Shown in pieces: positions 1 to 10,024 of a DNA stretch of 10,024 bases. Below the pieces are notes generated by a model. It was not told where the DNA came from, made no database searches, and saw nothing but the letters and a program-made list of their open reading frames with translations. The stretch is taken from IMG/VR virus record IMGVR_UViG_2671180864_000013. The stretch is one strand, 5' to 3'. This DNA comes from a virus. Lineage: Duplodnaviria; Heunggongvirae; Uroviricota; Caudoviricetes. Made by a program: the position numbers and the translations under genes. Every line of letters starts with the position of its first letter. Position 1 is the stretch's first letter.

Positions 1-173
1 TGTCAGTTATCATCTTCGGTTACGGTTATCGGCAGAACGCCCTGCCGCTGACAAGAGCTTATTTGCCTGACCAATCTACTCCACATGATAGATAACTATC
101 ATTTATAGCATTTGGCTTATTAGCCTTTATTTTTCATTGAGTTGCAAACAATAAGCTCGTCAAAAACAGTAAA

Positions 174-230
174 ATTAACTACACCATTAACTACACCGTT
201 CCACGAACAATATCGAACAACCACGAACAA
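174..230. repeat. Two short tandem repeat sets: ATTAACTACACC x2 (174-197) and three 10-bp units ending CGAACAA (201-230)
   Basis: Read directly: attaactacacc at 174-185 and 186-197; ccacgaacaa 201-210, tatcgaacaa 211-220, ccacgaacaa 221-230. The 10-bp phasing is iteron-like. Confidence 0.5.
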
Positions 231-420
231 AGATCAACACGCTTTAATCGTTATCATTTTCCGGCTATCAGTCATGAAACCAGTTATCGGCATCAGGCCC
301 ACCAGCGTGAAGCGTTTTTCATTTTTCGCGGGTATAAAAAATCGATGGGGCTGGCAGTCCGGAAGACGTCAGGGTACAGAGATTTGACCCGCCCCTCCCT
401 GTGCATGCGCACAATAAGTA

Positions 421-622
421 ACCGAAGGCGGAATTCCGCCCTCGGTACTCACATATGAGAAACGATATTTCTTCCACCGATACCCTTTATTTGGGTATCG
501 CGAGTAAGCCCCAAAATCTGGGTGTTACTCTTACTACCCAAACTACGGGTAGTTTCCGTAGTTTCATAGTCGAGTTGCAGATCTGCAACTCGCCACCAGT
601 TGCTAAGTGCATTTTTGCACTT
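421..622. other. Cluster of five inverted repeats / hairpins in non-coding DNA
   Basis: 13-bp arms 421-446 (one mismatch); CGATACCC-N7-GGGTATCG 478-500; AACTACGG-N7-CCGTAGTT 541-563; perfect 22-bp palindrome CGAGTTGCAGATCTGCAACTCG 571-592; AAGTGC-N6-GCACTT 605-622. Confidence 0.5.
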
Positions 623-639
623 TCGGTAATATCAACCAG

Positions 640-921
640 TTACCGCCGTAAGTGCTCCGGCTTCCTCCACTGGTAAGTATTTTTCGCGCTCTCCCTCCGT
701 TGTTGAGAACGGCGACGGTATGCCAGCAACTCAAGAACTCTGGTTCGTATGTTGCGCATATCCACGCCGTTAAGCTCAATACCGTCACGGCGCATTACCT
801 CATCCACCACACGCGCATAATTTTCAGCGGTCACGCTGTCCGGTTGCATGGCCTGTTCGTCAACCTGCTGGCTGATTCCGGCGACGCGGCGGATTAATCC
901 CAGTATTTCGGCTTCTGTCAT
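640..921 (-). CDS. Hypothetical protein (93 aa), function unknown
   Basis: ATG at 919-921 preceded by a G-rich stretch. The N-terminal ~70 aa look protein-like; the Arg-rich C-terminal tail runs into the hairpin region and may be read-through or a remnant. Confidence 0.35.
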   Translation of the reverse strand: MTEAEILGLIRRVAGISQQVDEQAMQPDSVTAENYARVVDEVMRRDGIELNGVDMRNIRTRVLELLAYRRRSQQRRESAKNTYQWRKPEHLRR

Positions 922-1100
922 TGTGCCCCCATCGCGCTGGTTAAGAAAACAAGCTCAGATTTTTTGTAAAGAATCTGTCACGCTAAAAGATGTCGAACAA
1001 AAATTAACCACAATCATCATCTTTTTTGCATCAACCACATTAAAAACAACAGGTTACACACATGATGATGATGACGATAAAACCACAAAAATGCGTTTTT

Positions 1101-1180
1101 TTCCGCGCCGACCCGCCCCGTGGACAGGCCCCCCCCACCAGGAGGACCCGCAAAAAAGGCGGCTGCTGCCGCCTTGTTCT
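1101..1180. repeat. Copy A of an ~80-bp repeat (C-rich core 1112-1144 plus terminator hairpin)
   Basis: Aligns in register with 3631-3710; the 33-bp core cccgccccgtggacaggccNcccccaccaggag matches 32/33. Confidence 0.7.
1151..1175 (-). terminator. Intrinsic terminator ending the capsid operon
   Basis: Minus-strand RNA reads AAGGCGGC-AGCA-GCCGCCUU followed by UUUUG, starting a few bases after the capsid stop at 1180. Confidence 0.6.
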
Positions 1181-3060
1181 CATGAAGAAATCGCTCTGAC
1201 CATTCCGCGATAATCCAGAGCAGCAACGCCAGCATCAATGCGGACCTTCCAGGCCACACCGTCAACAATAAAGCCCTCCTGCTGCTCAAGGTAAGGCTCG
1301 TCATTACCGTCAAGATAAGCCACCTCAATTGTGTCCGTTCCCTGTGCTGAAAGCATGTACCATTGCTTATCACTGACTTCATCAAGGCGGGGATCGACAA
1401 TAATATCCAGTTGTTTGTGGTACGGGTTATATGAACCACTGTTTGTATCGGCACCGAAAGGCGTGGTTGAGTTAACCATTTGCAACGCTCTGTCTTCCAG
1501 AGCCGCAGGAACAAGAAGGAATTTTGGCACAATATTCAGCACCTCACCGTTTTCATCCCTCTGTGTGCGCATTGCACGGCGTGCAATGCCAAGCCCTGTA
1601 GTGCTGACTCCGTTATCAATATCATTTCCGTGTTTTTTGCTGAACAGCGGTATACCGTCAGAAAGCTTTGTGTTTCCTGTCAGCACCAGATGAACCAGAT
1701 TACCCACCGTTCTGGCGGCTGCTCGCCCCATTGCCTGTGGGATAACTGTTAACTGATTCAGGTCATCGTTAATAATCGCCTGTCGGGTAATGCTGAAAAT
1801 ATTTCCGTAAGTTGCCAGCGCGATTGGTTCGCCACGGTCACTGGTGGTGATGTATTTATATTCCGCGCCTTCCGGCACTTTGTTTAATGTAGAGAAGCCA
1901 TTCAGGCCAACACGACGTGCCTCATGGAAGTTTGACAATGAACCTTTTTTCGTCCACTGGCGGAACGTTTCGCCGCTGTGTTCCCATCCGGCAAGCACGG
2001 ATTTTTCAGCACCACCAGCAAGGATATAAGTAAAATCGCTGCTGCTGTGGGTGAATGCCGCGTTTACTATCTGCGAGCGTGTGCTGTAGCTGCCTGTGCT
2101 TATGCCGCGATGGGTTAATGATGCCTGTGCCATATCGAAAAGGCTCATCATGGCGTAAGGGTTGCCGCGTTCTGCCTGTTCATGTCCCAGACGCGCATTA
2201 AGCCCCTGACGCATTGCATCGCCGGTTATGTTGCCGTTATCCGTGTACGCGTAGTAAAGATTTGCGGGGGTGGTTTTGTTTGTCGGTGTCGATTCTTTAC
2301 CCATAGTGAGTAAAAGGCGTTCGCGTGCATCCTCAACGCTACAGCCTGAATCAGCAAGACAACTTATAGCCAGGTCGTTATATCTTCCATTGAACGTGCC
2401 AAACAATTCACGTATCCCGTTGAGTCGTTCCTGTTCTCCGCTGCCAGTTTTCTGGCTGATCATGCTTTTAATATTTTCCGGCATATTCGAAAAATCTCCG
2501 ATTCGTTTTGATTCAATTCTGGCCATTGCTGTAATCGCGGGTATAACCTCATCTGCGAAGCCATTAGCCTTACACTCATTGCCATCCATCCAGGTTTCCG
2601 CCTCCATCATGGCGGTGATTTCCTGTTTGCTCCTGCCCGTTCTTCCGGCGTAGGTTTCCGCCATCGTGTCGCCCAGCTTGTCCATCAGGTCAGCAAAGCG
2701 GCGAACGTCGCCCGACACTCCGGCAGTAACACCACGGGGGGCATGTATCATCATCATCGCGTTTTCAGGCATAACGATGTGATCGCCACACATGGCAATA
2801 AACGAGGCCATAGAAGCCGCCATGCCTTCAATGTGTACAATTTTCTTTGCCGGATGATTTTTCAGGGCGTTATAGATAGCCAGCCCTTCAAAGATGTCGC
2901 CACCAGGTGAATGGATGCGAAGATGGATTTCAGGCACATTACCGCACGCGTTGATCTCGTCAGTAAGTGCCGATGCTTTTACACCGTACCCGCCGATCTC
3001 GTCATAAATGCGTACATGTACAACATCAGCCATAGCCTTAATGGAAAACCATGTTTTCAT
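1180..3060 (-). CDS. Fused prohead protease (ClpP / S14-like) and HK97-fold major capsid protein, 626 aa
   Basis: N-terminal ~180 aa carry ClpP-like motifs (IHSPGGDIFEGLAIYNAL ... GMAASMASFIAMCGDHIVMPENAMMMIHAP). The C-terminal ~430 aa resemble HK97-type major capsid proteins. AGGAG RBS 8 nt upstream of the ATG at 3058-3060. Confidence 0.8.
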   Translation of the reverse strand: MKTWFSIKAMADVVHVRIYDEIGGYGVKASALTDEINACGNVPEIHLRIHSPGGDIFEGLAIYNALKNHPAKKIVHIEGMAASMASFIAMCGDHIVMPENAMMMIHAPRGVTAGVSGDVRRFADLMDKLGDTMAETYAGRTGRSKQEITAMMEAETWMDGNECKANGFADEVIPAITAMARIESKRIGDFSNMPENIKSMISQKTGSGEQERLNGIRELFGTFNGRYNDLAISCLADSGCSVEDARERLLLTMGKESTPTNKTTPANLYYAYTDNGNITGDAMRQGLNARLGHEQAERGNPYAMMSLFDMAQASLTHRGISTGSYSTRSQIVNAAFTHSSSDFTYILAGGAEKSVLAGWEHSGETFRQWTKKGSLSNFHEARRVGLNGFSTLNKVPEGAEYKYITTSDRGEPIALATYGNIFSITRQAIINDDLNQLTVIPQAMGRAAARTVGNLVHLVLTGNTKLSDGIPLFSKKHGNDIDNGVSTTGLGIARRAMRTQRDENGEVLNIVPKFLLVPAALEDRALQMVNSTTPFGADTNSGSYNPYHKQLDIIVDPRLDEVSDKQWYMLSAQGTDTIEVAYLDGNDEPYLEQQEGFIVDGVAWKVRIDAGVAALDYRGMVRAISS

Positions 3061-3719: not shown

Positions 3720-4142
3720 TTAAAACGGTATGTTATCCCCGTACGGATCATCATTCCCCGCCTGTTGTTTGGCCCTGTTCAGTGCATCAGTGGCCTGCCC
3801 CTGTTGGCCTTTTTTACCGCCCGGTCGCGCCGTTCTGGCACTGATTACACTGTCTGCGATAACCTGCCAGCCCTGCCGCGTTTCTCCGTTCTGGCCTGTC
3901 CACTGGCTTACCTGCATGTTACCCGCCACGCTCACCAGCTCGCCTTTCTGGTGCTTTGCCAGTGCGTCAGCCTGTCTGCCAAACGCCAGGACGGATAACC
4001 ATATCGTCGCCGTTCCGTCATCTGCCTGGCTGCACGGCAGGGGAACCGCCATACTCGCCATCGTCATTTGCGTACCCTTGCTGGTGGTCTTTAACTGCGG
4101 GTCAGCCACCAGCCGCCCGTAAGCCGCTATCTGTGCTGTCAT
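3720..4142 (-). CDS. ssb: Single-stranded DNA-binding protein (SSB), 140 aa
   Basis: OB-fold region parallels E. coli SSB by eye (GRLVADPQL ... WLSVLAFGRQADALAKHQKGELVSVAGNMQVSQWTGQNGETRQGWQV), with a Gly/Gln-rich linker and an acidic C-terminal tail ending DDPYGDNIPF (compare DDDIPF). Confidence 0.8.
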   Translation of the reverse strand: MTAQIAAYGRLVADPQLKTTSKGTQMTMASMAVPLPCSQADDGTATIWLSVLAFGRQADALAKHQKGELVSVAGNMQVSQWTGQNGETRQGWQVIADSVISARTARPGGKKGQQGQATDALNRAKQQAGNDDPYGDNIPF

Positions 4143-4429: not shown

Positions 4430-4657
4430 CTTCACCTGTTCACCTTTTGCAATTTTCCCTTTTTATTCATGATGTTAATGGGTTAACAGTTTCACAAAAA
4501 CTATTCACCAACTGTTCACCACTGTTCACCCTTAAAGCTCAATAAAGAATCAAAAAGGTGAACAGTGAATAGTTTGGTGAACAGTTCATAAATAACTGTT
4601 CACCCTATAATATACTGATATAAAAGACATTTATTGCAGGGTGAACAGTGGTGAACA
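4430..4657. repeat. Replication origin candidate: eight perfect TGTTCACC / GGTGAACA octamers plus variants, with AT-rich tracts
   Basis: Forward TGTTCACC at 4437, 4513, 4523, 4597; reverse GGTGAACA at 4557, 4576, 4640, 4650; variants at 4430-4436 and 4502-4509. Two tandem pairs have 10-bp spacing. Sits immediately 3' of the primase gene. Confidence 0.7.
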
Positions 4658-4698
4658 GTTATTCCATAAGTTTAATTTTTTCCATCGTCATTTGTGAC

Positions 4699-6489
4699 CT
4701 ATGCACATGATGGCATCCAGTCTTCTGAATCCTCTGTCAGGGTCACATTTGAACGCAAACCGTGCTTCGTTTTCCGTTTCATATACTCCCTGCCATATTC
4801 CGCCATTGCCCCCGGCATATCTTTACCGAAGCGCGTCAGTGTTACAGGTTTACCGAATCCGTGTGCCCTCATATATGCCAGATAGGCGTGATAAAGATAC
4901 CTGCGCGGACTGAACGGAATAATTTCGGCATTACCCACTAACAGACCATCACACATTACCGACGACATGAGATAGCCGCAGAAGTCCACCAGCGAATCGC
5001 CCTCGCGTTTTATCACCAGAGCTTCTTCTGATTTCTGCTGCTCATACAGCAGGCGTTTAGCTTCGTCCTGGTCAGAAAAACGAGTAAGCAGGTGGCGAAT
5101 CACAACCGCCAGCTCTCCTTCTATTTTTTCTGCCAGCATGGGGTCGCGTTCGTTCTCCGGTACAACTTCCGAAAAATTGAATATCACCCGACGACGTGAG
5201 ATCCCCCCGCTGCGGTCACTGAATGACATGGCGTTATTGTTAACCGCCAGCACTACTGCCGGAATACGCGTTGAGTAGGGGGCTTTGTGTTTCGGGTCAA
5301 TTGCCACCTTGTCACCGCCTGTAATGGCCTTAATCCCTGCCCCATCACCAGCGTAGCGGGTCATATCCGGCATGATAATCAGCGAAAAGCCAACCACTAA
5401 CGCGCGTTCCCTTGCATCTTCCAGCGCCTTCATGCTTGCCGATACTGTGTTGGCCTTACCCGCCAGCATGGTGCAAATCTCCGCCATCACGCTTTTACCA
5501 CTTCCCCCTGGACCTGTTACCTCAATGAATAACTGCCAGTCGTACCGGTTCGCCAGCACCATGAATAATACAGCCAGTACGCGATCCGCCTTGCGGTCAT
5601 TCTCAGCCACCGAACGGCGTAACCACTTCCAGAAATTCGGCGCATGTGTTGCCAGCGTTTCCCCCTCTGCTGGTGGGCTGAAAGGTAATTCACTGGCAAT
5701 TAACAACCAGTCGTTTTTGTTATGCTCCCGAAAATTACCTGTTCTGGTATCAAATACCCCGTTACTGAATCCAATCAGGTTACGGGCTGTATTCCCCATT
5801 ACAGGCAAACTTAACTTCATGGTATCGACCGCCGATTTAATGGCGTTCTGCGAATAGCTGATCTCCGCATCAATGAAAATCTGTGCCATAGCTCGCTGTA
5901 ATTCTTTATCCTGTACTGGCTCCCATACAACGCCGTTGTAATGGTGAACAGTGTCAGAGTCAGCATGAATCGCCAGTTCACCGCCATAATGTGCCAGGAG
6001 AACTTCGCCGCGTTGACTTGCTCCCATCTGGTTAAGCGCCAGTGATGAAGCGTTATCGTCTTTTACCCGCTCTTTTTTCTTTACAGGCAGTTCAACTACC
6101 TTTTTCTTTTCCGCCTGCTCTGCCCGTTCACGTTCCAGATATTCGCGCCAGTTCTCCCGTTTCTGGCTGTGCATTCCTTCAGGGTAATAATCAGCATCCC
6201 TGACACCTGCCACTGCCAGTTTCTGCCCGATGGTATTAACAAGCCCCGGACGCAATAACCCCGCCTGATAGAGACGCACGCGATAGCGTCCGTCCGGTAC
6301 GATTTGCAGGTTGTCCAGTTCGGCAAGTTGTTGCTCTCCAAGCCAGACAGGTGGCACGTTATCGCCAGCCAGTCGCCCGTCCTGTTCCTGCCACTGTTTC
6401 GCATGTGCCCACGCATCACTACCCGCAAAAATGATGACTTCCGTCATTTTGTCACGCGGCTGGTGTTTTAAATTTGGCGCTTTTTTCAT
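4699..6489 (-). CDS. Replication protein: primase / SF3 helicase (P4 alpha-like, D5-type NTPase), 596 aa
   Basis: Walker A motif GPGGSGKS inside a P4-family NTPase-like region. Start taken at the ATG at 6487-6489 (GGAGAG RBS; ATGA overlap with the upstream ORF stop) rather than the GTG at 6504. Iteron origin lies directly downstream. Confidence 0.85.
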   Translation of the reverse strand: MKKAPNLKHQPRDKMTEVIIFAGSDAWAHAKQWQEQDGRLAGDNVPPVWLGEQQLAELDNLQIVPDGRYRVRLYQAGLLRPGLVNTIGQKLAVAGVRDADYYPEGMHSQKRENWREYLERERAEQAEKKKVVELPVKKKERVKDDNASSLALNQMGASQRGEVLLAHYGGELAIHADSDTVHHYNGVVWEPVQDKELQRAMAQIFIDAEISYSQNAIKSAVDTMKLSLPVMGNTARNLIGFSNGVFDTRTGNFREHNKNDWLLIASELPFSPPAEGETLATHAPNFWKWLRRSVAENDRKADRVLAVLFMVLANRYDWQLFIEVTGPGGSGKSVMAEICTMLAGKANTVSASMKALEDARERALVVGFSLIIMPDMTRYAGDGAGIKAITGGDKVAIDPKHKAPYSTRIPAVVLAVNNNAMSFSDRSGGISRRRVIFNFSEVVPENERDPMLAEKIEGELAVVIRHLLTRFSDQDEAKRLLYEQQKSEEALVIKREGDSLVDFCGYLMSSVMCDGLLVGNAEIIPFSPRRYLYHAYLAYMRAHGFGKPVTLTRFGKDMPGAMAEYGREYMKRKTKHGLRSNVTLTEDSEDWMPSCA

Positions 6490-6785
6490 TTCTGCTCTCT
6501 CCACGCGGCAATCATGTTTTTTAGTTCCTGTAGTTTTTTATCAACATCCATACATGACACATGGTTATTTCTGGAAAGCGGGATTTCCCGACTGAATCTG
6601 CTAATAAAGATCTCCACGTTCAGCGAACTAAGAAATGAATAGCCATCACGGATAAAATACACACGGTCAAACATCAGTTCTTTTACCGTTACTCTGTTAC
6701 CGTTCTTATCCAGATAAATAGCGCCGGGGATAATTTGGGGGTGTGCATAACCGCTGGCAGTCAAGCCAGATAAATACGTTCTCAT
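6486..6785 (-). CDS. Hypothetical protein (99 aa), coupled to the primase gene
   Basis: ATG at 6783-6785; its TGA stop overlaps the primase ATG. No recognisable motif. Confidence 0.5.
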   Translation of the reverse strand: MRTYLSGLTASGYAHPQIIPGAIYLDKNGNRVTVKELMFDRVYFIRDGYSFLSSLNVEIFISRFSREIPLSRNNHVSCMDVDKKLQELKNMIAAWREQK

Positions 6786-8156: not shown

Positions 8157-8366
8157 TTACGCTGCCTTACCTGAATTAATGCGATCCCGGCTTTTAACCC
8201 ATTCCATAACCTCGGACAGCAGCCAACCTACAGAACGCCCACCAAGATTACGGCGAGACGGAAAGCTCCCTTTTTTCTCCAGTTCGTAGCGTGTAGTGCG
8301 ACACACTCCAGTTAACTTACGACATTCATCCTCACGGATTACGCGATCTTCATTTATTTCACGCAT
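8157..8366 (-). CDS. alpA: AlpA-family (prophage CP4-57 regulatory protein-like) transcriptional regulator, 69 aa
   Basis: The segment RVIREDECRKLTGVCRTTRYELEKKGSFPSRRNLGGRSVGWLLSEVMEWVKSR parallels E. coli AlpA by eye. Start uncertain: ATG at 8364-8366 gives typical AlpA length but has no RBS; the GTG at 8451-8453 has an AAGAGG directly upstream and gives 98 aa. Confidence 0.75.
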   Translation of the reverse strand: MREINEDRVIREDECRKLTGVCRTTRYELEKKGSFPSRRNLGGRSVGWLLSEVMEWVKSRDRINSGKAA

Positions 8367-8785: not shown

Positions 8786-10024
8786 TCAAGAATTTTGGGG
8801 GTAAATTCGCGGGGTCATAACAACGATTTTTTCATCATTGTTCTGGAGAAGCTCGAGACGGTCTACCCATAGATTAAGAGCGTCACGCTTTGCATCGAGA
8901 TAACGGGAGTGGTTATAGACGCGTTGCATTCCTGGCATCTGGTGGGCAGTAAGCTGTTCGACAATATGCGGATCCACGCCTAAATCGTTCAGCATGGTTG
9001 TAAATGTGTGCCGGATGTCGTGCAACGACCAGGGGGTTTGATTAATGCGTCTGTGTGCCGTTCTTCCGTACTCTGCTACGGATGATTGCCCTTTCAGTTC
9101 TCCAAGCAATAAGCCCGTGTGCCTGTTCTGCTCCACCAGCTTCATGACGAACGGCAAGATCGCTTCCGGTATTGGCCTGAATATTGCTACCTTCGTTTTG
9201 CTGTGTTCTTTCGGCACAGTCCAGAGCATTTCTTTAAAATCCCATTCCCGAACCTCGGAGCGTCTTAGCTCAGTGGTACGGCATCCGAAGACAATCAGAA
9301 GGCGAATTAAAGCGCTGTAGTACGGCGGGAAAATTTTTTCATCCAGTGCGCGGAGTAGCTCGCCAAGCTCCTTGTTTGTTAGCACTCGCTCGCTTATTTC
9401 TGCTTTTTTTCCCACATCACCTACGACCATATCATCAAGAACGTTACTGACGGCGTAGCGACGTTTACGGCAGTACTTAAGCGCCTGTTTGCATACCTGC
9501 AACAAAAAGCCGGCTGATACCGGATTACGCTTAGCAAGCTGGTCAAAACAGGCCAGCCAGTGGCGTAGCTCGCATTTATCCAGCGGCATAGCACCAATCT
9601 GGCTGATTATGTGCTTATTGATACGGCTTTTCAGTGATTCGTGGTCAGTGCGCTTTTCCTTCGCATACGACTCAAGCCAGTAAGTGAGCGCGTCCTTAAC
9701 CGTCACAGGGGCTAACGCTTCCTGCACTGTGTGATTAAGCTCATGGCGTGGATTTTTCCCCTCCGCCAGCCAGGCGCGACACTGTGCCGCTTTTTCCCTG
9801 GCTGCTTTCAGGCTCAGATCGGGATAGTTGCCCAGTCTCAGGCGTTCCGGTGATACCTGCCTGCCAGTTCCGGCCCTGTAAGTGAAATACCAGGTTAACA
9901 GGCCGCTGGTGGAATGTCTTACGCTAAGATTGCCACCGTCATTAAAAAAGGCGTTTTTTGTGGTTGGTGATCCGCTTAATTTTCGTAAAAGAGTGTCGCT
10001 AAGTCTATGAATTGCGCTGCTCAT
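8786..10024 (-). CDS. int: Tyrosine recombinase / integrase, P4-like, 412 aa
   Basis: N-terminal arm-binding-like region (FNDGGNLSVRH ... WYFTYR ... LGNYPDLSLKAAREKA) and C-terminal catalytic region with HDIRHT and downstream Tyr. The ATG is at the window edge, so a longer N-terminus cannot be excluded. Confidence 0.9.
   Translation of the reverse strand: MSSAIHRLSDTLLRKLSGSPTTKNAFFNDGGNLSVRHSTSGLLTWYFTYRAGTGRQVSPERLRLGNYPDLSLKAAREKAAQCRAWLAEGKNPRHELNHTVQEALAPVTVKDALTYWLESYAKEKRTDHESLKSRINKHIISQIGAMPLDKCELRHWLACFDQLAKRNPVSAGFLLQVCKQALKYCRKRRYAVSNVLDDMVVGDVGKKAEISERVLTNKELGELLRALDEKIFPPYYSALIRLLIVFGCRTTELRRSEVREWDFKEMLWTVPKEHSKTKVAIFRPIPEAILPFVMKLVEQNRHTGLLLGELKGQSSVAEYGRTAHRRINQTPWSLHDIRHTFTTMLNDLGVDPHIVEQLTAHQMPGMQRVYNHSRYLDAKRDALNLWVDRLELLQNNDEKIVVMTPRIYPQNS

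Follow-up and report, generated by a model that had tools for sequence, protein, structure and literature searches.

In the attP of phage lambda, the arm sites P1, P2 and P'1–P'3 are accompanied by the Xis sites X1, X1.5 and X2 and by sites for IHF and Fis. The KplE1 (CPS-53) prophage of E. coli, with the KplE1/HK620 recombination module, offers a related arrangement, in which attL runs in the order core (argW), TorI sites I1–I2, TorI sites I3–I5, IntS arm sites and intS ATG, and in which the TorI units read GTTCG, GATCG or GTCCG, with the block of three set 2 nt apart, that is, at a 10-bp phasing (PMC2951348). The five TorI sites of this attL are cooperative, and excision in vitro requires IHF, IntS and TorI (PMC3509656). 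On the K-12 sequence, the region upstream of intS reads CAGTTCGTCA TGGTTCGCTT CAGATCGTTG, and in attR we found a doubled motif with a 12-bp period, GGGTAAAATAGC GGGTAAAATATT, some 65–70 bp from the core. Among phage satellites, the helper-embedded PICIs carry a doubled motif, tgTGTATTGCantgTGTATTGCa, 81 and 132 bp from the attP centre; the proposed binder was either the Int arm domains or AlpA, the choice being left undecided, the motif was reported absent from other PICIs, and phased heptamer arrays were not described (PMC10111431). The AlpA proteins of PICIs have been described mainly as master activators, rather than as proven excisionases (PMC11773190).

The locus analyzed here, a stretch of 10,024 nucleotides referred to as the window throughout, is a phage satellite (PICI) of E. 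coli (Table 1). Its insertion point lies 98 bp upstream of clpS, a minus-strand gene whose start codon sits just left of window position 1. Positions 1–106 are matched by 5425 of 5426 complete E. coli genomes, and beyond 106 most of these genomes match nothing. The same 106 bp are present at the empty site of island-free K-12 (L003, 701–806), where they lead into the small gene yljB and then cspD. From about position 103 onward the insert is a ~10-kb island with all of its genes on the minus strand; the best full-length matches to the window among complete E. coli genomes are 92–97% identical, and full capsid-forming PICIs are among the sister elements that occupy this site. A scan for tRNA and tmRNA genes was negative, which excludes a tRNA gene as the att site, and a whole-window Rfam scan at the gathering threshold returned no match.

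Two products of the island bear directly on its integration and excision. The integrase combines the Pfam domains Arm-DNA-bind_3 (PF13356, E = 1e-16) and Phage_integrase, and, among solved arm-binding domains, 3JTZ/3RMP (E = 6e-4) and, weakly, 3JU0 (E = 0.05) are matched by its N-terminal domain. AlpA matches Pfam PF05930 (E = 4e-16) and the AlpA family protein of PDB entry 8C3T; a pairwise comparison with TorI gives 25% identity (E = 1e-4), and TorI itself scores below threshold against the Pfam AlpA model.

Table 1. Coordinates of the features discussed in the text, in order along the window; ranges count from the first letter of the window.
Feature	Position	Strand	Remarks
Chromosomal flank (clpS 5' leader)	1–102		runs to the end of the attB/attP identity block
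Crossover core	86–106	.	GATAGAT-AACTATC-ATTTATA
Doubled 12-mer ATTAACTACACC ATTAACTACACC	174–197	+	putative tandem Int arm-type sites
10-bp-phased heptamer array	204–240	+	candidate cooperative binding array for AlpA as recombination directionality factor (RDF) and/or regulator
Remainder of the int-distal arm	241–284	.	includes the conserved block CGTTATCATTTTCCGGCTATC
Second GTTATCGGCA copy	283–292	+	start of the cos-side module
Cos-like segment	317–399	.	homologous to DNA just upstream of terS in SfII/ST64B-type phages
Second cos-like segment	954–1156		homologous to the sequence between Rz and terS in Stx phages
ClpP-protease/major-capsid fusion	1180–3060	-
SSB	3720–4142	-
TGTTCACC-type origin iterons	4499–4530 and 4640–4659		beside the D5-type primase
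D5-type primase	4699–6504	-	origin iterons alongside
alpA	8157–8366	-	69-aa AlpA-family winged-helix protein
int	8786–10024	-	412-aa tyrosine integrase; its start codon forms the window's last three bases

The crossover core is composed of a chromosomal core-type site (GATAGAT), a 7-bp overlap (AACTATC, 93–99) and an island core-type site (ATTTATA), and the attB/attP identity block, ATAACTATCAT, occupies 92–102. The attB of K-12 reads GATAGAT-AACTATC-ATCTATC, a 7-7-7 inverted repeat, and the other junction, as present in sister islands, reads GATAAAT-AACTATC-ATCTATC. Positions 103–284 make up the integrase-distal attachment arm of the island. The repeats within it sit 70–140 bp inside the integrase-distal end of the satellite and 78–140 bp from the crossover core, with the doubled 12-mer starting 78 bp from the overlap centre.

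An initial annotation of this stretch had pointed out two tandem copies of ATTAACTACACC followed by three 10-bp-phased CGAACAA units, and had regarded both as distinct from the TGTTCACC origin iterons. All three observations held on re-examination. The ATTAACTACACC units (174–185 and 186–197) form a perfect tandem (TRF: period 12, 100% match), and the window contains no further copy even at two mismatches. The heptamer array begins 7 bp past this pair, with CGAACAA at 204–210, 214–220 and 224–230, at a spacing of exactly 10 bp, and a degenerate fourth heptamer, TCAACAC, follows in phase at 234–240. Over the whole window CGAACAA occurs 8 times against 1.9 expected, a count of 8 being reached in 0 of 200 shuffles. 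The origin iterons, which read AACTGTTCACC, differ from these repeats in sequence, and the ACTACACC element of the doubled motif is unrelated to the core-type GATA[AG]AT. Further along the arm, a block similar to CGTTATCATTTTCCGGCTATC also occurs in L005 and L011, islands with other integrases.

The repeats proved to be conserved across related islands. In 15 distinct clpS-site distal arms, the doubled 12-mer is invariant at 24 of 24 positions and the heptamer array at 25 of 27; positions 231–248 are invariant and 249–280 mostly conserved, set against variable columns amounting to 31% in the spacer 103–170 and to 88% beyond 281. An 86-bp query over the repeats finds matches in 1009 of 5426 complete E. 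coli genomes, at a median of 2 places per genome, and 368 of these 1009 genomes match at least 80% of the query. When one genome per species was searched with the exact doubled 24-mer, only the Shigella flexneri representative (both arms) and two unrelated organisms were recovered, so that this search added no cross-species footprint. To judge from this pattern, the repeats look like genuine, conserved functional sites, and the earlier suggestion that they are bound by protein is very probably correct, putative though the sites are.

Because the window stops at the int ATG, the int-proximal arm was read from sister islands; for the window itself, its form is deduced from L006 and L007, whose Int (over residues 1–120) and full-length AlpA show 100% identity to the proteins encoded here. 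Counted from the int ATG, the sister arm consists of a 22-bp spacer, ATTAACTACACC ATTGACTACACC, four 10-bp-phased units (CGTACAA, C[GA]AAC[CT]G, CGAACAA and CGAACAA), about 50 bp of further sequence, CGAACAC xxx CGAACAC, and then the core. These repeats are all co-oriented with the window copies, and every sister island for which that arm was available has a further doubled copy, oriented alike, upstream of int. The motif search across related islands that had been suggested for this locus thereby recovered both motifs in the int-proximal arm as well, with their orientation preserved.

Related islands were found at four other chromosomal sites: phoQ|roxA (O157, Shigella), smrA|abgR, inside tqsA, and thiM|rcnR. 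Where the geometry was measured in full, in four att classes, the doubled motif lies 74–79 bp from the core centre in the distal arm and 130–135 bp from it in the proximal arm; both arms could be read in the tqsA class, and its layout is as in the other att classes. The cores and core-adjacent spacers are unrelated among the att classes, yet the distances to the doubled motif are constant.

The islands at these sites also provide natural exchanges in which the two motifs can be followed separately. The clpS-site and phoQ/smrA islands have one and the same Int arm beta-sheet (NLSVRHSTSGLLTWYFTYR) and share their doubled motif, ATT[AG]ACTACACC. Their AlpA proteins are 61–68% identical, with the recognition helix reading CRTTRYE at clpS versus SRTCRYR at phoQ/smrA, and the heptamer passes from CGAACAA in the clpS-site islands to GGAACAA or GAAACAA in the phoQ/smrA islands; Int residues 1–25 also differ between the two heptamer classes. 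A further exchange is provided by a thiM-site cf-PICI. Along 12.3 kb, starting at the equivalent of window position 285 and taking in nearly all of alpA, it shares 96% identity with a clpS-site cf-PICI, and the two differ only in int and both arms. The thiM-site int shares 70% DNA identity with the clpS-site int, its beta-sheet is changed to GLEIKHSKGGKLTWYFRYR, and its doubled motif is ACTGACCACACA in both arms; this island keeps the A-type AlpA helix RTTRYE together with C[GA]AACAA heptamers. These natural swaps separate the motifs, and we accordingly place the doubled 12-mer with the Int arm domain and, more tentatively, the heptamers with AlpA, the separation of AlpA from Int being provided solely by the thiM-class swap.

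Beyond these islands, a doubled motif beside the int ATG was likewise found with the tqsA-class integrase (AGTGACTACACC), with an Int class 37–39% identical (L121 and L122; TTGCAATACACA) and with the argW-class integrase (CTGTAC[AT]CAAT), and five Int arm-domain classes correspond to five doubled-motif variants. All 83 island-borne doubled motifs of the ACTACACC type (83/83) fit the two heptamer classes, and the heptamer class equals the Int/AlpA class wherever the locus includes int and alpA as well; no recombinant with mismatched Int class and heptamer class occurs among 56 IMG/VR loci. In all loci, class A AlpA is accompanied by C[GA]AACA[AC] and class B AlpA by G[GA]AACAA, a correspondence that involves just two classes, mainly one base apart. 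The repeats show no co-variation with the replicase, being found with a D5-type primase, a RepA helicase or DUF927 in different islands, and none with the packaging module, which is capsid-only in the window island and elsewhere of the cf-PICI kind, TerS/capsid, or missing altogether.

Among the described systems, this layout matches that of KplE1. Along the strand that encodes int, the sequence in the present islands is CTTGTTCGCT CTTGTTCGTC and so on, and the GTTCG pentamer, the phasing, the orientation relative to int and the order of elements are all alike in KplE1 and the clpS-site islands: TTGTTCG, the reverse complement of CGAACAA, contains GTTCG, the TorI site of KplE1. The doubled motif of KplE1 attR, GGGTAAAATA, parallels window 174–197. 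IntS has an Arm-DNA-bind_3 N-domain, as does the Int of the window, although the two are only 24% identical overall, and the RDF of KplE1, TorI, is likewise small and of the winged-helix kind, with a distant similarity to the AlpA of the window. The two elements differ in target (the argW tRNA in KplE1, the yljB/clpS intergenic region here) and in arm motif, which is of the GGTAAAA type in KplE1 and of the ACTACACC type in the window island. In PMC2951348 and PMC3509656 the TorI sites of KplE1 are described on attL only, whereas the phased array of the window island also flanks the distal doubled motif. The TorI gene is at the prophage's far end; in the window island, alpA adjoins int. The KplE1 sites were mapped by experiment; those of the window island are predicted from sequence comparison.

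The helper-embedded PICIs resemble the window island in being E. coli PICIs with int-alpA and in having a co-oriented doubled motif of 12-bp period in each arm, at 81 and 132 bp from the attP centre against 74–79 and 130–135 bp in the present islands, but their motif, tgTGTATTGCantgTGTATTGCa, differs in sequence from that of the window; its reverse complement was recovered upstream of the 37–39% identical integrase (L121, L122). The attP of lambda is alike in that a heterobivalent integrase uses arm-type sites in both arms, distinct from the core-type sites, and in that its Xis sites are tandem, head-to-tail and beside an arm site (PMC2951348). Lambda integrase is, however, unrelated in sequence and has five arm sites against 2+2 in the family of the window. 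Lambda has its Xis sites in one arm and clear IHF sites, whereas no IHF consensus (WATCAANNNNTTR, at most one mismatch) was found in window 1–320. RDF sites in both arms would be unusual, given that lambda and KplE1 have them in one arm only, and the phased arrays beside each of the two doubled motifs have no counterpart in either system. As for the ori/crr iterons of P4 (TGTTCACC), they share with 174–240 the character of short direct repeats in a satellite with a primase-type replicase, but the repeats at 174–240 differ in sequence, are situated in an att arm and go with int and alpA, not with the replicase.

On these grounds we consider it quite probable that 103–284 is the int-distal arm of attP, that the 12-mers are arm-type sites for Int and that the heptamers form an AlpA array; which protein binds which motif, and what its binding would do to recombination, we infer from the comparisons above. 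After excision of the island, 103–284 would constitute one arm of attP. The two ATTAACTACACC units would be contacted by the N-terminal arm-binding domain of the P4/CP4-type tyrosine integrase, and with two further ATTAACTACACC-type sites in the other arm there would be four sites, one for each protomer of the recombining tetramer. The catalytic domains of Int are predicted to bind the core at 86–106, and bridging from the core to the arm sites (across 74–79 bp, and across 130–135 bp on the int side) would fold the DNA into a recombination complex. Successive CGAACAA sites would be brought onto one face of the helix by their 10-bp phasing, and AlpA is predicted to polymerise head-to-tail on this array, as TorI, lambda Xis and other excisionases do, which would bend the arm and bias the reaction toward excision. 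The int-proximal array would, in addition, control transcription of int.

The same attachment arm could be read with its binders exchanged or otherwise assigned, the heptamers being Int sites and the 12-mer binding AlpA or another island protein, or Int binding both. The P'1–P'3 sites of lambda are indeed three adjacent, roughly 10-bp-phased sites, the heptamer class correlates with Int residues 1–25 as well, and the earlier work on helper-embedded PICIs left Int and AlpA open as binders of the doubled motif (PMC10111431). We nevertheless regard such a reassignment as unlikely: in the thiM class, A-type AlpA and C[GA]AACAA are kept while the Int arm domain and the doubled motif differ, an identical 12-mer accompanies AlpA proteins that are ~65% identical and have different recognition helices, and in KplE1 it is the GTTCG units that are TorI sites and the motifs beside the int ATG that are IntS arm sites. 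Alternatively, the arrays could serve transcription only, as AlpA (or Int) operators acting on a promoter at the island end or modulating clpS. The island does separate clpS from its upstream region, AlpA regulates transcription in PICIs, and the same sites in KplE1 also regulate intS. Against this, a scan of window 1–700 on both strands found no sigma-70-like promoter, and the module keeps a fixed distance from unrelated cores beside phoQ, smrA, tqsA and thiM, which fits the geometry of an intasome and not the regulation of a particular host gene; we therefore hold a purely transcriptional role to be very unlikely. In the same stretch (1–700), the sole terminator-like site is 446–421 on the minus strand, and a promoter scan of one sister int-proximal arm gave a single hit, on the chromosomal side.

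The initial annotation had itself proposed other binders and functions, namely a helper protein, packaging, a partition-like site or a cis replication enhancer, and these fared less well than its description of the repeats. Recognition by a helper protein is disfavored by the location of the repeats in an att arm, their recurrence beside int and their co-variation with the island's own Int and AlpA. Packaging, with the repeats as cosB-like sites for the small terminase, draws on the position of the repeats 90–140 bp from the cos-like segment homologous to the DNA upstream of terS, on what is the terS side in SfII-type phages. That homology, however, stops at 317, and the phages concerned do not have the repeats; in a cf-PICI, the same cos-side module (285 onward) is joined to different arm repeats; the same repeats occur with a different sequence after 278 and with different or no packaging genes; and their second copy adjoins int, far from any cos. 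With the cos-like signals lying elsewhere and the repeats failing to follow the packaging module, we find this explanation extremely improbable. As for a second set of replication iterons, comparable to the cis region crr of P4, or a partition site, the repeats are short, direct and in phase, and GAACA is common to them and to the reverse complement of the origin iteron, GGTGAACAGT (4499–4659). Yet they differ from the origin iterons in sequence, the identical doubled 12-mer occurs with D5-type primases, RepA-type helicases or DUF927 replicases, and the repeats are swapped along with int and not with the replication module; partition genes are absent from the island. We give a role of the repeats in replication or partition an almost negligible probability.

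Most likely, then, the repeats are sites for recombination proteins of a known kind, in a form undescribed until now in this island family, and they reveal no new mechanism. Their identification establishes where the left boundary lies, and how the recombination region is built, in an E. coli satellite family that is widespread, the repeats having matches in roughly one in five complete E. coli genomes, and supplies concrete candidate sites for Int and AlpA that are usable in the design of mini-attP substrates. It also brings out that int and both arms move as one cassette between otherwise identical capsid-forming islands, an exchange that helps in annotating island ends and in predicting switches of target site. 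At four chromosomal sites or more (clpS, phoQ, smrA, tqsA), PICIs combine the same or nearly the same Int arm motif and arm domain with different core specificities. We suggest only tentatively that AlpA doubles as the RDF on the arrays of both arms, that co-resident islands cross-talk and that the cassette of int and arms retargets satellites. If this were so, co-resident islands could, on induction of a helper phage, draw on each other's Int arm domains and AlpA or compete for them, and the att arm would be part of a portable, exchangeable cassette of int and arms.

The arm module ends at ~284, and a separately exchanged cos-side module starts at 285, the boundary at 278–285 being drawn from the H43/H44 hits and from the comparison of L002 with L005. 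An ORF that overlaps the repeats (142–387, plus strand) was rejected as coding, as it has no Pfam match and its frame is broken by this module boundary; in the RefSeq genomes among the matches listed, no CDS is annotated under the repeats. GTTATCGGCA had likewise been counted with the repeats. It is present twice, as reported, but at coordinates one higher (25–34 and 283–292) and outside the repeat set: the first copy belongs to the chromosomal clpS leader and is also found in island-free K-12, the second belongs to the separate cos-side module, and such pairs are unremarkable here, since distant 10-mer pairs occur in 21 of 98 real 300-bp segments taken from the window and, among Markov-random segments, in 5.8%. 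At the module boundary, TATCGGCATCAGGCCCACCAGCG is common to the window and the thiM-site cf-PICI, whose arms differ. The cos-like segment in the cos-side module is 92–95% identical to the SfII/ST64B-type phages, where it lies 20 bp upstream of terS, and in vB_EcoM-720R4 an HNH-type homing endonuclease gene flanks it on its other side.

Comparison of the clpS-site cf-PICI (L002) with the cf-PICI inserted between thiM and rcnR (L005) showed that the two islands share 12.3 kb at 96% identity despite occupying different chromosomal sites. The differences between them are limited to int and both att arms, together with one additional gene in the thiM-site island, a DUF6387 gene annotated adjoining int, and the exchange boundary is sharp, falling at the equivalent of position 285 in the window. 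Given this near-identity outside the exchanged parts, int and its arms behave as an exchangeable cassette for retargeting integration.

Within the conserved block of the arm (231-280), AGATCAACACGCTTTAAT (231-248) shows no variation across 15 arms. In islands with other integrases, CGTTATCATTTTCCGGCTATC was found again downstream of the heptamers (in L005 and in the related-island locus L011); it did not recur in L010. The exact 24-mer ATTAACTACACCATTAACTACACC, the doubled 12-mer, is also present in a Pseudohongiellaceae MAG (L013, 2608-2631) and in the cyanobacterium Oculatella sp. (L014, 2368-2391), against a chance expectation of about 0.02 exact matches in 596 Gb. In the MAG the motif is repeated in tandem almost three times, upstream of a gene. 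BLAST of either locus against the window and two sister islands gave no match.

Features of the window outside the att arm
Feature	Position	Strand	Remarks
Cos-like segment 1	317-399		SfII/ST64B-type phage DNA 20 bp upstream of terS, 92-95% identity
Strong intrinsic-terminator-like hairpin	446-421	-	End of the leftward operon, just before the cos-like segment
Cos-like segment 2	954-1156		VT1-Sakai, 85-87% identity
ClpP-like protease/major-capsid fusion	1180-3060	-	
Single CGAACAA	8488-8494	- (alpA strand)	alpA begins about 120 bp downstream

The homologue of the first cos-like segment in vB_EcoM-720R4 is bordered, on the side away from terS, by an HNH-type homing endonuclease gene. The second has matches in further Stx phages besides VT1-Sakai, where its counterpart is an unannotated stretch running from Rz to the ORF immediately upstream of the large terminase gene; this ORF, annotated as hypothetical, is presumably the small terminase. 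Both segments contain GACCCGCCCC (386-395 and 1110-1119). The presence of two cos-like segments suggests that two types of helper could package the island; packaging of this kind has been reported for EcCICFT073, an element with two cos sites. In a comparison including L002 and L005, genes for portal, terS and terL are all absent from the window island. The sister islands that occupy this att site, and have the left-end 900 bp in common with it, are full capsid-forming PICIs: they carry terS, terL, HNH, portal, protease and capsid genes.

The insertion point (window 86-106; 786-806 in the island-free K-12 locus, L003) is 98 bp upstream of clpS, where yljB, a small-protein gene of 24 codons, has its 3′ end. 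This gene remains intact on the int side, and clpS is cut off from its upstream region, so clpS-clpA expression may be affected. GTTATC occurs 15 times across the window against 4.3 expected, including five copies in the first 300 bp (at 6, 25, 91 on the minus strand, 250 and 283); of these five, two belong to the chromosomal clpS leader and one to the core. At the other end of the island, the single CGAACAA upstream of alpA could be a site for autoregulation of this gene.
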